Positions 30,299 through 58,156 of a DNA stretch of 64,000 bases are shown here, piece after piece (position 1 is the first letter of the stretch; each line of letters starts with the position of its first letter). Location: NCBI GenBank assembly GCA_013202975.1, contig JABMQY010000136.1:6178-70177 (forward strand), written 5' to 3'. The notes beneath the pieces are model-generated. The model saw only the letters and a list, made by a program, of their open reading frames with translations, did not search any database and had not been told where the DNA came from. Both the position numbers and the translations under genes were made by a program. This DNA comes from Candidatus Saganbacteria bacterium. Lineage in GTDB: Bacteria; Margulisbacteria; WOR-1; XYC2-FULL-46-14.

Positions 30299-30320
30299 CC
30301 ATGAACCATACGGTTCATGG
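30299..30320 (-). promoter_or_regulatory. 22-nt perfect palindrome/hairpin CCATGAACCATACGGTTCATGG in the 5' leader of the FGE-like gene
   Basis: Seen directly. Homologous copies at 36632 and 58135. Confidence 0.45.
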
Positions 30321-30321
30321 T

Positions 30322-30357
30322 CTATTATTATATCGAGAGTTATTTGAAATAATTTCA
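30322..30357 (-). promoter_or_regulatory. TGAAATTA-N14-CGATATAATAATAG motif (minus strand)
   Basis: Motif copy immediately upstream of the hairpin. Confidence 0.5.
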
Positions 30358-30362
30358 CTTTA

Positions 30363-30410
30363 TTTGTAACTTCCCGTAACCTCCCGTAACACCTCGTAAC
30401 ATCCCGTAAC
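30363..30410. repeat. Five direct repeats of ..CCCGTAAC with exact 10-bp periodicity between the divergent FGE-like and secreted-protein genes
   Basis: GTAAC at 30366, 30376, 30386, 30396 and 30406. The same repeat unit recurs upstream of the second FGE paralog at 52151. Confidence 0.5.
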
Positions 30411-30430
30411 CTTATGCTATAATTATCTAT

Positions 30431-55057: not shown

Positions 55058-56141
55058 ATTGATTAACTGTCTCGCAGACCCTTTCTATTTCTTCGTTTGT
55101 TAGTTCTGGAAAGATAGGCAGGGAGAGAACCTGGTCTTGTAGTTTTTCGCTCTTTGGCAAATCGCCTTTTTGATATCCTAGATTAATAAAAGCTTCCTGC
55201 AGGTGCAGTGAAATTGGGTAATAAACCATTGCTCCTATTTTATTCTCCTGCAGTTTTGCCAGTAATTCGTCACGATTGGAGGCTTTAATTGTAAATTGGT
55301 TCCAGACATGTTTTTCGTTTGCGTTTGTTGCAGGCAGGGTAACGGTCTTGATCTGTTTTTTGTATATTGAAGCTGTTTTTTGGCGATTTTTGGTCCATTC
55401 TTTAAGGTGTCGCAGCCTTACTCTTAGTATGGCGGCCTGAAGCGCATCGAGCCTGCTGTTGTAGCCGATGATGTTGTGGTGATATTTTTTTCTGCTTCCG
55501 TGGGTCCTTAATATTTTTGTTTCGTTTGCAATTGTTTCGTCGTTGGTTGTAATCATTCCTCCGTCGCCAAAACAGCCCAAATTTTTTGTCGGGAAAAAAG
55601 AAAATGCCCCCGCGTCCCCAAACGATCCTGCTTTTTTCTTGTTTTGTTCTGCTCCAATTGCCTGGGCGCAGTCTTCTATAATTTTTAGATTATATTTTTT
55701 TGCAATTTTTTTTATCGATTCCATGTCTGCCGCTTTTCCATAGAGGTGAACAGGAAGAATTGCCTTTGTTTTTGGGGTGATTTTTTCTTCAATTTTTTTA
55801 GGATCTATGTTAAAATTCTCTTCTTCTATATCAACAAAAACCGGTTTTGCGCCGACATAAACAATTGCCTCTGCAGTTGCTATAAAAGTAAAGGGGGAGG
55901 TAATAACTTCGTCTCCTGGTTGTATTCCGCAGGCGCGCAGGGCAAGATGTATTGCTTCTGTTCCGGATGAAACAGCAACCGCAAATTTTGTTCCGCAGAA
56001 TTTTGCGCATTCTTCTTCTAGAGCCGCCACCTGCGGTCCCAAAATAAAAACCCCGCTGTCTATAACCTGTTTTACCGCAGCATCTATCTCCGGCCGGATT
56101 CTTTTTATTTGTCTCTTAAGATCAAAGAATGGAACTGGCAT
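55044..56141 (-). CDS. DegT/DnrJ/EryC1-family PLP-dependent sugar aminotransferase; candidate GnnB-like
   Basis: Family motifs including the ..GD.GAFSFFPTKNLG.. lysine region. Confidence 0.65.
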   Translation of the reverse strand: MPVPFFDLKRQIKRIRPEIDAAVKQVIDSGVFILGPQVAALEEECAKFCGTKFAVAVSSGTEAIHLALRACGIQPGDEVITSPFTFIATAEAIVYVGAKPVFVDIEEENFNIDPKKIEEKITPKTKAILPVHLYGKAADMESIKKIAKKYNLKIIEDCAQAIGAEQNKKKAGSFGDAGAFSFFPTKNLGCFGDGGMITTNDETIANETKILRTHGSRKKYHHNIIGYNSRLDALQAAILRVRLRHLKEWTKNRQKTASIYKKQIKTVTLPATNANEKHVWNQFTIKASNRDELLAKLQENKIGAMVYYPISLHLQEAFINLGYQKGDLPKSEKLQDQVLSLPIFPELTNEEIERVCETVNQYGKS

Positions 56142-56187
56142 TTTCTAATTATAACATTTTTAACAAACAGCTGATAGGGGAGTTGGG

Positions 56188-58110
56188 CTATGAGGCCTTA
56201 TAAAAACCTTTTGCCTCGTTATAGAGATCTGTTATCATCTGCCCTCTTTCTTCTTTTGCCTTAAGTGTTTGTATATTCATTTCGCCCGCTACTGTTTTTG
56301 CGTTATTCATATCATAATGATATTTTTTCATTGCAGTACGAAAGGCACTTCTTGCCTCGTCAGCGTTCATTCCTATTTCAAATCCTTCTCCCAAATCTGC
56401 CAGCTTTTTTGCTGCGACCTCTTCTTTGGACATTCCCTGGTTTTGTTGTTTAAAGTGTTTTTCTTTTTCTATTTCTAGCAATTTCTGCATTGCCATATGT
56501 ACATCGCCAGAAAGAGAAGAATAACATCTCTCTTCCCAGGAAGGATTTTGTTGGCGGGTTAGCATGCGTATTATGGTGACAACTTTTCCTGCTCTCATCG
56601 GATGAAGCTGGTTTAATGCCCTCGTTGCATCACTGTCGGCCCGGGTGATTAGATGCTCTGCGATCTGTTGGTCAGGGAGCTGATCAAGTCTCTCCGCACG
56701 AGGGGCTGGTGGTTTGGCGCTCAACCGGGCAGCCTCTAGCAGCATAGCAGAAAAGGCCTTTGCCATAACATCGTTCCACTTCCCAATTTCAAAAATCATG
56801 CGGTGTACCCACTGACTTAGTTCCTTCAGGGGAATATTCTCAAGTGCTAATTTAATTGCTCTTTGTGTGTTTAGCGATGAAAAGACGTAGGCAGCCCACT
56901 CATAATGCATGTTGGAGAGAGAGGAGAGAACTTCCCATATTGATTGATCGTCAGCGCCCTGAATAAAACGCAATAAGGCCTGATGCAATTGTGGGTACTG
57001 TTGTTGAGTGGTCTGCAATATAAATAATACTAATGCTGTGTGGGGTTGGTGATGAATAAAAAAGTAGTTCTGAGCTTTTGCGGCAATGCATGCAATAGAG
57101 TTTGGTCTTGCGAGTAAGAGGTTAAGCAACTGCGGATTGGAATGTAGCGCGGAGTAGACCCTCATTATTTGATCGAGATCCATGCTCTTTAGGCAGTTAG
57201 CTACGACATTATCCCCAAGGGAGGCTATTTGGCTTGCTGTTGATGGATCGCTTAGCAATATCCCAATGGTATCAGCCGGGAGGTTCCTTATTAATCTTGT
57301 TAGGTTTTGCGGGTCCTGGGCAATGATTCTTCTGAATACTCCATTCGCATTGAAGGGGTTGTGCCTGGCGGCGATGGTTAGCAACCCGGCATAATCGCGA
57401 TCTCCGACATATTCTGCATCAACCGGCATGCTTCCACATAATTTGTCACAAACATACATGCTGTCCGGTCCCAAAAAGGGCTCGAGCTTGTAACCTTCGT
57501 ATTCTTCATGCAGTTCTAATAATTGTTCAAGAGACAGGGATGCAACAATAGAACTTCTTGCCATGGCTTCGGTATTACGTAATACATGATAAGCCTTTTT
57601 GGGAGATAGGGCTGAAACAAGCTTATTTAGCTGTTCTCTCGAAAGAGGACGGTCTCGTCCATGGTCAAAATCTTCTTCAATTCCCTCGGCTAGGAGCTTA
57701 GGCTTTACCCCTGCTAAAACCTGTTGAGGGGAGGGATAGAAATCGAGCTCTTTGGCTGTCTGGGCAGTGGCAATTGCATCTAGGGCCACTTCAATTCTTT
57801 CTATAGGATCGTAAATATTGTTAATTACAGCATGGTGGGCCCGGGCTATACTTTTTCTTAGGGCGCTTGGCCTCTCCAAGTTTTGTGATGCTCCTCTTTG
57901 GCCCTTTTCCTCAATTATTAAGAGCTCCGCTGCATCACTGATGATTGCAGTTGCTTTTTGTGAATTAAGAATATTCCTTTCATAGCCCTGTACCCTTAAA
58001 TTATCAGGAACAATAAATCCGGTTGTTGTTTTCCATGCGCTGGTAAAAGCGTCCCTTAATCCCCCCGGGGGTGTTTTTCTTGTTCCTCTTGGTGGTGTTA
58101 TTGCCATCAA
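56188..58110 (-). CDS. Hypothetical protein (640 aa)
   Basis: Long ORF with motif promoter and leader hairpin upstream. Confidence 0.55.
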   Translation of the reverse strand: MMAITPPRGTRKTPPGGLRDAFTSAWKTTTGFIVPDNLRVQGYERNILNSQKATAIISDAAELLIIEEKGQRGASQNLERPSALRKSIARAHHAVINNIYDPIERIEVALDAIATAQTAKELDFYPSPQQVLAGVKPKLLAEGIEEDFDHGRDRPLSREQLNKLVSALSPKKAYHVLRNTEAMARSSIVASLSLEQLLELHEEYEGYKLEPFLGPDSMYVCDKLCGSMPVDAEYVGDRDYAGLLTIAARHNPFNANGVFRRIIAQDPQNLTRLIRNLPADTIGILLSDPSTASQIASLGDNVVANCLKSMDLDQIMRVYSALHSNPQLLNLLLARPNSIACIAAKAQNYFFIHHQPHTALVLFILQTTQQQYPQLHQALLRFIQGADDQSIWEVLSSLSNMHYEWAAYVFSSLNTQRAIKLALENIPLKELSQWVHRMIFEIGKWNDVMAKAFSAMLLEAARLSAKPPAPRAERLDQLPDQQIAEHLITRADSDATRALNQLHPMRAGKVVTIIRMLTRQQNPSWEERCYSSLSGDVHMAMQKLLEIEKEKHFKQQNQGMSKEEVAAKKLADLGEGFEIGMNADEARSAFRTAMKKYHYDMNNAKTVAGEMNIQTLKAKEERGQMITDLYNEAKGFYKAS

Positions 58111-58134
58111 TCTCCCCCTTTTTGGGAATGCTTG

Positions 58135-58156
58135 CCCTGTACCGAATGGTACTGGG
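58135..58156 (-). promoter_or_regulatory. Leader hairpin variant CCCAGTACCATTCGGTACAGGG (GTACC-ATTC-GGTAC core)
   Basis: Same ACC-AUUC-GGU loop region as the other two copies, with compensatory stem changes. Confidence 0.4.

Follow-up and report, generated by a model that had tools for sequence, protein, structure and literature searches.

A 22-bp palindrome in three gene leaders of a Candidatus Saganbacteria contig and its probable origin by insertion

Three Palindromes Downstream of Motif Promoters

The window analyzed here, a stretch of 64,000 nt from Candidatus Saganbacteria (contig JABMQY010000136.1, positions 6,178 to 70,177), carries three 22-nt palindromes, each located in the leader of a gene. 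An earlier note on this DNA had placed them at 30299..30320, 36632..36653 and 58135..58156, and direct reading of the sequence confirmed all three positions. Copy 1 (30299..30320) lies in the leader of an FGE-like gene on the - strand that encodes an FGE-sulfatase-domain protein (ATG at 30280) and is followed by skp and lpxD. Copy 2 (36632..36653, + strand) is located in the leader of a gene for a secreted protein of 281 aa without a Pfam domain (ATG at 36666), followed by pth. Copy 3 (58135..58156, - strand) precedes a gene for a protein of 639/640 aa, here called the 640-aa gene (ATG at 58107), which gave only a sub-threshold match to MgtE_N and is followed by genes for a DegT-type aminotransferase, a GFO/IDH oxidoreductase and RseP. 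The Pfam scan covered a subset of the window proteins. With 100% identity, the 281-aa and 639-aa proteins correspond to HQ564_10565 and HQ564_10665, encoded on a 72.5-kb contig of a Candidatus Saganbacteria metagenome-assembled genome (MAG).

Copy 1 reads CCATGAACCATACGGTTCATGG, that is CCATGAACC-ATAC-GGTTCATGG, with a perfect 9-bp stem and a 4-nt loop. Copy 2, CCATGAACCATTCGGTTCATAG or CCATGAACC-ATTC-GGTTCATAG, has a single C.A mismatch at pair 2, and the earlier description of these two stems as perfect or near-perfect was correct. Copy 3, CCCAGTACCATTCGGTACAGGG or CCCAGTACC-ATTC-GGTACAGGG, has an A.A mismatch at pair 4 and differs from copies 1 and 2 at two pairs, with both arms altered each time. 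It belongs to a different palindrome subfamily that has the architecture, the three inner pairs and the loop in common with the other copies. We designate the subfamilies PAL1, CCATGAACC-AWWC-GGTTCATGG, with two copies in the window, and PAL2, CCCWGTACC-ATTC-GGTACWGGG, with one. The 22-mer consensus with up to three mismatches matched only copies 1 and 2 in the window (0 expected from shuffles), and the 10-nt core ACCATWCGGT matched exactly the three sites (0.10 expected). The part of the source genome covered here, about 67 kb, contains three PAL1-type copies and one PAL2 copy.

Conservation of an ATWC loop and of ACC/GGT closing pairs had been proposed earlier. The three inner pairs and the loop are indeed shared, but the comparison mixes the antisense strand of copy 1 with the sense strand of the others: the gene of copy 1 is on the - strand, and its loop in the mRNA sense is GUAU, not AUAC. 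The mismatched pair of copy 2 reads C.A on the mRNA strand; it is G.U only on the antisense strand. Co-variation in the outer stem of the third copy is borne out insofar as two pairs are changed on both sides, but this is one sequence only, and it also contains the A.A mismatch.

One copy of a promoter-like motif, TGAAATTT-N14-CGATAT(ATATATAG), of which the window holds about 14, lies upstream of each palindrome. The promoter of copy 1 is located at 30330..30358 (- strand, GTGAAATTA-N14-CGATAT), that of copy 2 at 36591..36619 (+ strand, GTGAAATTT-N14-CGATAT) and that of copy 3 at 58175..58203 (- strand, GTGAAATTT-N14-CGATAT). The earlier note gave the spacing as 2-6 nt after CGATAT..TAG; all three palindromes are downstream of the motif, but the actual gaps are 1, 4 and 6 nt. 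We placed the transcription start site (TSS) about 7 nt past CGATAT, at the A of 'TAG' ('TAGA' for copy 1), because several genes with the motif begin 6-10 nt after CGATAT (31133, with CGATAT-N6-ATG; 32962). With this TSS, the hairpins would start at about +4, +7 and +13, and the palindromes fall within the first 4-35 nt of the three predicted transcripts. The predicted RNA folds had energies of -16.1 kcal/mol (z = -5.0) for the leader of copy 1, -11.7 kcal/mol (z = -2.7) for copy 2 and -19.6 kcal/mol (z = -3.2) for copy 3, the last including a second hairpin proximal to the Shine-Dalgarno (SD) sequence. In copies 1 and 2, the SD sequence follows the palindrome within 2 nt. Rfam gave no match in the whole window at the gathering threshold; at E<=10 around copy 2, and in an E-value-level search of six foreign loci, no meaningful family was found.

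Further motif sites are located at, e.g., 9334, 15161, 16706, 24875(-), 26052(-), 31112, 32941, 52214 and 61710. The start codon often follows the motif directly, resulting in leaderless transcripts or very short leaders. We take the motif to resemble the sigma-28/FliA/SigD consensus (TAAA-N15-GCCGATAT). Here, however, it stands in front of housekeeping and envelope genes. The promoter of tuf in the same genome is of the canonical type, TTGACT-N17-TATAAT (L091:749-783). Another 5' stem-loop, possibly related, is present at 61746..61777 (+ strand, CAGAGAACC-N14-GGTTCTCTG). It belongs to the leader, 140 nt long, of a 245-aa gene with a motif promoter of its own and begins about 5 nt downstream of the TSS. 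It has GAACCAT..GGTTC in common with PAL1, and its membership in the family is uncertain.

The Palindrome in Other Genomes

We scanned the contigs of one genome per species, 596 Gb in total, for the pattern CCATGAACC-N4-GGTTCATGG. This resulted in 62 loci in other genomes, compared to about 9 expected (596e9/4^18). They span Cloacimonadota, Zixibacteria, Ignavibacteria, Patescibacteria, Nitrospirae, Acidobacteria, Omnitrophota and Burkholderiales, among others; PAL exists with identical sequence in many bacterial phyla. The ATAC/GTAT loop of copy 1 was present at 14 loci in at least 8 MAGs (Cloacimonadota, Zixibacteria, Ignavibacteria, Zambryskibacteria and others), while about 0.5 were expected. 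Other members of the family have an AGAC loop or the ATTC loop known from copies 2 and 3. Many loci have asymmetric flanks in common (...CTCCG-PAL-CTCCGCC...), and a weak ...CG-PAL-CT... pattern was seen. At least six loci have the first bases of the palindrome as the CCA end of a tRNA gene (Asp, three times Ser, Ala, Arg).

The Burkholderiales MAG MERZ01 contributed at least 10 loci and the Cloacimonadota MAG SOKM01 six, with copies embedded in longer repeats. In MERZ01 (L005, L013, L020, L042-L046, L049, L052), PAL1 ends a repeat of about 75 nt, cgtcattgcgagcttcctGTTTCGGGCGACCGAAACtgcaaactgg-PAL1-agag. The motif ...gtcattgcgag... flanks PAL1 in MERZ01, in Cloacimonadota and in other MAGs, which points to composite arrays of small hairpin repeats that are common across phyla.

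In an unrelated vent bacterium (BMS3Bbin08, L019), a PAL1 copy is followed after 7 nt by CCCTGTACCGAATAGTACAGGG, which is identical to copy 3 of the window at 20 of 22 positions. The two elements lie in tandem within an 846-aa open reading frame (ORF), and PAL2 is followed by a T-run. This near-copy beside PAL1 argues that copy 3 is a member of PAL2, a sister subfamily travelling together with PAL1. A search of IMG/VR returned no match for PAL1 and two for PAL2, one of which has an AGAC loop and lies just 5' of an SD sequence. A phage origin of PAL1 was rejected with this result.

About 10 of the 62 matches are ordinary terminators or longer palindromes (L002, L022, L027, L047 and others). Could the window copies be hairpins of this kind, ordinary intrinsic terminators that are similar by chance, or signals for biased DNA uptake? 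Some of the foreign matches are terminator hairpins in longer palindromes with T-runs (L002, L022, L047), and the T-run behind PAL2 in L019 would also agree with termination. However, no window copy is followed by a T-run in the transcribed sense (a U-run in the RNA), and all of them come after promoters and not after genes. Discrete insertions with flank duplication, as described below, are not how uptake sequences arise. We regard both possibilities as extremely unlikely.

Across the PAL family, 4 of 9 pairs showed changes on both sides, in a table that is partly circular, as several rows were retrieved with palindromic patterns. These changes suggest that the hairpin as such is of importance, be it in single-stranded DNA or in RNA. 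A promoter-anchored scan of metagenomes (CGATAT-N8-18-ATGAACC-N4-GGTTCAT; a collection that does not include the window itself) yielded 16 matches, which is chance level, and none was Saganbacteria-like. A limited literature search with the strings CCATGAACC/GGTTCATGG and TCATTGCGAG returned primers only and no description of the palindrome.

Evidence for Insertion

A host repeat in a Cloacimonadota MAG was present in empty form (GTTGGGGCTTGTCCCCAAC / GTAGCGTTGGGGCTTGTCCCCAACATTGG) and in filled form (GTTGGGGCTTG-PAL-CTTGTCCCCAAC / GTAGCGTTGGGGCTTG-CCATGAACCATACGGTTCATGG-CTTGTCCCCAACATTGG, each with the 22-nt palindrome). Comparison of the empty site L032:3892 with the filled sites L041, L021 and L032:2435 revealed a 26-nt indel that consists of the 22-nt PAL and a duplicated CTTG. 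At the filled sites, PAL is inserted in the loop of the host repeat. Both loop orientations were seen, which suggested independent insertions in the same loop.

Flanking direct repeats of at least 4 nt were present at 9 of 60 loci, compared to 1.1 in permutations (maximum 6 in 2000). The duplications at foreign loci included CTTG, CTCCG, CCCCG and, in an Omnitrophota MAG, CGAAG. The CCCCG duplication occurred at a tRNA-Asp gene whose own 3' end is CCCCG-CCA. Within the window, TCTA at 30295..30298 and TCTA at 30321..30324 directly abut copy 1 on its left and right side (...ccTCTA-CCATG...CATGG-TCTAtt) and are a candidate target-site duplication. PAL inserts with a target-site duplication of 4-5 bp.

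A fourth copy of the source genome was found on a contig that overlaps the window end, about 2.1 kb past the window and directly after tRNA-Thr(GGT) (L091:651-744). It reads CTATGAACCGTGCTGGTTCATAG, that is CTATGAACC-GTGCT-GGTTCATAG, with CGGG on either side. This tRNA gene has no encoded CCA, and the C and T with which the palindrome begins provide its last acceptor base and its discriminator, respectively. At pair 2 of this copy, T-A replaces C-G; copy 2 of the window has the A only, as if it were an intermediate.

In windows of about 8 kb at the loci, we found no separated CCATGAACC...GGTTCATGG pair around a kb-sized segment, and thus no parent insertion sequence (IS) with the same termini. 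We also considered that PAL could be the att site of integrative elements at tRNA genes, and rejected this since no integrase was present downstream of 10 tRNA-adjacent or leader-adjacent copies. Mimicry of a tRNA T-arm or minihelix was rejected as well, since the 3' tail does not fit NCCA geometry.

Leaders of Orthologous and Paralogous Genes

Conservation of the element in related leaders had been named beforehand as a test that could refute its regulatory role. For the 281-aa gene, the result was negative. Two orthologous loci of related Saganbacteria (L063 and L064; 54% and 49% identity) have leaders of the form GTGAAATTT-N14-CGATATATATA(T/C)AGGAAGGAG...ATG, in which the promoter and the SD sequence are kept and the palindrome is missing in both cases. 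The window leader, ...ATATAGAAGG-CCATGAACCATTCGGTTCATAG-CGAGGGATTATTATG, aligns to them with an insertion-sized gap. Since the orthologues lack the palindrome and retain promoter and SD sequence, copy 2 appears as a discrete insertion between TSS and SD. A second assembly from the same population has CCATTAACC at copy 2, which breaks pair 5 and shows no compensating change. Judged from these sequences, neither the C.A mismatch nor the single-nucleotide polymorphism (SNP) at pair 5 suggests selection on an mRNA stem.

Conservation was not found for the FGE-like gene either. This gene is missing between skp and the divergent gene in the relatives L063 and L064. Two FGE-like paralogues from the same samples, which are 62% identical, have the same promoter type and are leaderless (CGATAG-N6-ATG and CGATAA-N6-ATG).

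Other Saganbacteria contain unrelated palindromes in the skp leader and elsewhere, with equivalent intergenic positions in L064 and L063. The skp leader of L064 (9156-9224) has CCCTCTCT-N3-5-AGAGAGGG twice, and L063 (4854-4904) has TATRCCGGGAATCCCGGKATA twice, similar to the leader hairpin GGTATCGGGATATCCGGGTACC of L083. Seemingly, each genome has its own small-palindrome families.

These data bear on the earlier proposal of a dyad operator for a dimeric repressor. In the form considered here, the repressor would bind over +1 to +30 and keep a small regulon from being transcribed. The inverted repeats, perfect or nearly so, do overlap the initially transcribed region of three promoters, and copies 1 and 2 both have ATWC as their center when read on the + strand despite the opposite strands of their genes, which would fit recognition at the DNA level. 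Palindromes that occur across phyla can also be protein-binding sites, as for the parS sites in the window. However, copy 3 is changed at positions 3 and 6 of both half-sites, so that pairing is kept and the half-site sequence is not, and the distance to the promoter varies (+4, +7, +13). The element was not conserved in orthologous promoters, no regulator gene was evident beside any copy, and the same sequence, with duplicated flanks, is found in unrelated phyla at the 3' ends of tRNA genes, within further repeats and in an ORF. With half-sites that differ in copy 3 and a sequence that is not restricted to promoters, we consider such an operator quite improbable. A LexA/Cheo-box-like operator, for which we assume the form GAAC-N4-GTTC, was discarded because the spacing here is GAAC-N6-GTTC.

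A Miniature Insertion Element as the Probable Source of the Shared Hairpin

The occurrence of the 22-mer in non-leader contexts across phyla, together with the duplications and the empty site, argues for a shared repeat and not for a shared regulator. It is probable that the three sites are copies of a 22-bp miniature palindromic insertion element with a 9-bp stem and a 4-nt loop, and we infer that the hairpin common to three unrelated genes goes back to common insertion, not to a common regulator. The earlier note saw the palindrome as a link between three otherwise unrelated genes; joint regulation of these genes is not supported, as the same 22-mer is also located at the 3' ends of tRNA genes, within repeats and in an ORF. 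The shared hairpin alone is no basis for annotating a regulon of these three genes.

PAL would survive where it is harmless, as in the loops of other repeats or directly after the discriminator base of a tRNA. At tRNA genes, its first bases CCA (or CT) would restore the tRNA end after insertion. In the source genome, it would survive between the TSS of the TGAAATTT-N14-CGATAT promoters and the ribosome-binding site, since insertion between TSS and SD would spare the signals for promoter function and translation. Only about 4.1 kb of the 64-kb window is intergenic, and leaders account for about 5-10% of this; gaps between TSS and SD, and tRNA ends, would therefore be among the few spots that tolerate 26 extra bases. 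With copies at +4 to +13, the three mRNAs would start with a 9-bp stem-loop. Its likeliest effect would be generic, with the 5' end being shielded from 5'-end-dependent decay, and a modest effect on translation is possible because the SD sequence lies within 2 nt in copies 1 and 2. According to this model, the predicted 5' hairpin of the mRNAs most likely arose as a side effect of insertion or was co-opted after it. A dedicated operator or regulon is unlikely.

Several points weigh against insertion as the explanation. A clear target-site duplication is missing at copies 2 and 3, neither a transposase nor a parent element was found at the loci, and the 67 kb of source genome is a small sample. 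None of the window copies is more than about 13 nt away from the TSS as placed here, and uniform intergenic insertion would give this with p ~1e-3 to 1e-4. Survival at harmless sites alone does not fully account for this clustering in leaders, so that a preference for certain targets, or else selection for a 5' hairpin, has to be assumed: PAL may prefer the AT-rich DNA that is melted at initiation, or a 5' stem-loop may be advantageous and be kept. In the sole orthologue found for the 640-aa gene (52% identity), the corresponding place in the leader is taken by another 9+4+9 hairpin, GGTATCGGG-ATAT-CCGGGTACC (22 nt, -11.7 kcal/mol). For this gene, the specific sequence is not conserved and the presence of a leader hairpin is, as judged from one orthologue, and this hairpin is equally compatible with a conserved structural role and with an independent insertion. 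Together with the leader bias, it means that the hairpins may have a functional role. Finally, a general excess of perfect hairpins in genomes could feed part of the cross-phylum excess; loop identity, shared flanks and the empty site argue against this source.

The same leader data have to be weighed for a dedicated cis-regulatory RNA, a stem-loop kept by selection as a 5' stabilizer or as the site of an RNA-binding protein that co-regulates three operons. Such a role would agree with the strong positional bias, with the stable predicted stems 4-13 nt from the inferred 5' ends, with the other hairpin of the 640-aa orthologue and with the unrelated hairpins in the skp leader of other Saganbacteria. 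Two of the operons adjoin envelope genes (skp-lpxD; DegT-GFO-RseP), and changes on both sides were seen at 4 of 9 pairs in the PAL family, in the partly circular table. On the other hand, the element is missing from the orthologous or paralogous leaders of two of the three genes, the loop of copy 1 is inverted relative to transcription, the mismatch of copy 2 does not allow a wobble pair in the mRNA, and the population SNP is uncompensated. The identical 22-mer in non-leader contexts of many phyla with insertion-like behavior, and the lack of an Rfam family match, also speak against it. A dedicated cis-regulatory RNA is, in our view, unlikely. What stands of the regulatory RNA hairpin suggested earlier are the stable predicted folds and the position at 4-35 nt, but not conservation in orthologous leaders.

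PAL could be an undescribed, ultra-small (22-bp) mobile palindrome that is spread horizontally and is near-invariant, is mobilized in trans by a widespread enzyme, possibly via a single-stranded hairpin, targets tRNA 3' ends, initially transcribed regions and hairpin loops, and is co-opted as a 5' stem-loop. We put this forward as a tentative and rather doubtful extension. A mobile PAL of 22 bp would equal the smallest mobile DNA described in size or be even smaller. Its notable features are the same sequence from Patescibacteria to Burkholderiales, duplications of 4-5 bp, and repeated landing at tRNA CCA ends and at the 5' ends of transcripts. This raises the questions of which enzyme would mobilize it across distant hosts and whether such elements are recruited as generic RNA-end structures in compact genomes of uncultivated bacteria. 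For genome annotation, PAL insertions create spurious small ORFs, lengthen leaders and can sit in frame in genes.

Comparison with Known Small Repeats

PAL resembles several kinds of small palindromic repeats, namely REP/REPIN elements, miniature inverted-repeat transposable elements (MITEs), SDRs and Rickettsia palindromic elements (RPEs), yet it fits no single class. REP/REPIN elements are mobilized by RAYT (Y1 HUH) transposases. Like PAL, they are short, dispersed, mostly extragenic stem-loop palindromes whose families differ by genome. PAL copies are single and do not form the inverted doublets of REPINs; they lack a conserved 5' GTAG-type tetranucleotide, and the flanks in the window differ. 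While REPs are species-specific and are not known to have flanking duplications, PAL occurs with the same sequence in many phyla and has duplications of 4-5 bp. No RAYT gene was found, and no search aimed at one was made. With 21-65 bp, REPs are among the smallest repeats known, and they can affect mRNA stability (PMC3184786).

MITEs such as Correia/NEMIS, ERIC and RUP have in common with PAL the inverted-repeat ends, a target-site duplication, the non-autonomous nature and the location in intergenic and intragenic positions. Unlike these elements of about 50-500 bp with internal sequence, the 22-bp PAL consists of just two 9-bp arms and a 4-nt loop; to our knowledge, every MITE is several-fold longer. 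Small mobile repeats have been reported both between and within genes, and they can supply transcripts with hairpins or other motifs (PMC2229807).

The small dispersed repeats (SDRs) of cyanobacteria come close to PAL in size. Elhai et al. (2008, Genome Res 18:1484) reportedly described them as hairpin repeats of 21-27 nt with evidence for mobility, nested in other repeats, and their families are said to be confined to a few heterocyst-forming cyanobacteria. Compared to such repeats, PAL is alike in its 22 nt and in its insertion in the loop of another repeat, and it differs in its presence in many phyla. Saganbacteria are relatives of Cyanobacteria. RPEs have about 100-150 bp, are restricted to Rickettsia and are located between genes or in frame within genes. 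PAL is likewise palindromic and found both in intergenic regions and within ORFs (PAL1 and PAL2 in the 846-aa ORF of L019), but it has only 22 bp and is not restricted to a lineage.

Stem-loops at the 5' terminus protect mRNAs from 5'-end-dependent decay, as known for the ompA 5' UTR of E. coli and the ermC and aprE leaders of B. subtilis. The PAL leaders, with the TSS placed as described, would share with these stabilizers a stable stem-loop a few nt from the 5' end and upstream of the SD sequence. The known stabilizers have gene-specific sequences, whereas PAL hairpins stem from a dispersed repeat. In copy 3, about 12 nt at the 5' end would remain unpaired, which in E. coli would weaken protection.

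Other Features of the Window

Both PAL1 copies border lineage-specific segments. Compared to the related Saganbacteria L063 and L064, the FGE-like gene (29438-30280) is inserted between skp and the divergent promoter region, and a three-gene block (31145-36579) is inserted between the CBM11-like gene and the 281-aa gene. The block encodes a 597-aa domainless protein, a 735-aa protein with a metallo-beta-lactamase domain and two cNMP-binding domains (an Anti-Pycsar Apyc1 match is listed), and a DUF6687 protein. Upstream of the CBM11-like gene (30431-31099), four tandem repeats (C/T)CCCGTAAC / CCTCGTAAC are located at 30370-30412 with a spacing of about 10-11 nt. They look like phased binding sites of a regulator, as far as their sequence and spacing indicate, and share one divergent intergenic region with PAL1 copy 1.

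Three 16-bp palindromes are present in the yidC-jag-mnmE cluster at 48896-48911, 49810-49825 and 49862-49877 (TGTTCCACGTGGAACA twice, TGTTTCACGTGAAACA once). They presumably match the parS (ParB-binding) consensus, TGTTNCACGTGAAACA. Their position beside dnaA/dnaN and the minimum of the cumulative GC skew points to a replication origin near 47 kb. In relation to this origin, the orientation of 3 of the 4 PAL copies fits a strand rule, a number too small to use. The TrmE_N domain of MnmE is stretched, with residues 23-173 covering a profile of 117 positions, because of an in-frame, repeat-rich insert at 49760-49885 within mnmE (49548-51077). Two parS-like palindromes lie in this insert, as does a GC-rich unit, gcctgcccgccgaagcctgcctgccggcaggc, which is similar to the sequence beside PAL1 in L019 (6648-6700). 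By its sequence, the insert looks like another small repeat placed in frame in a gene.

A perfect 9+4+9 palindrome, CATATAAGCTAAGGCTTATATG, is located at 790-811 in the intergenic region 744-949, and its sequence is unrelated to PAL1 and PAL2. A cluster of long, AT-rich inverted repeats (26796-26875; arms of 32 nt, 81% complementary) lies in a 75-nt gap upstream of a 237-aa gene (26066-26779).

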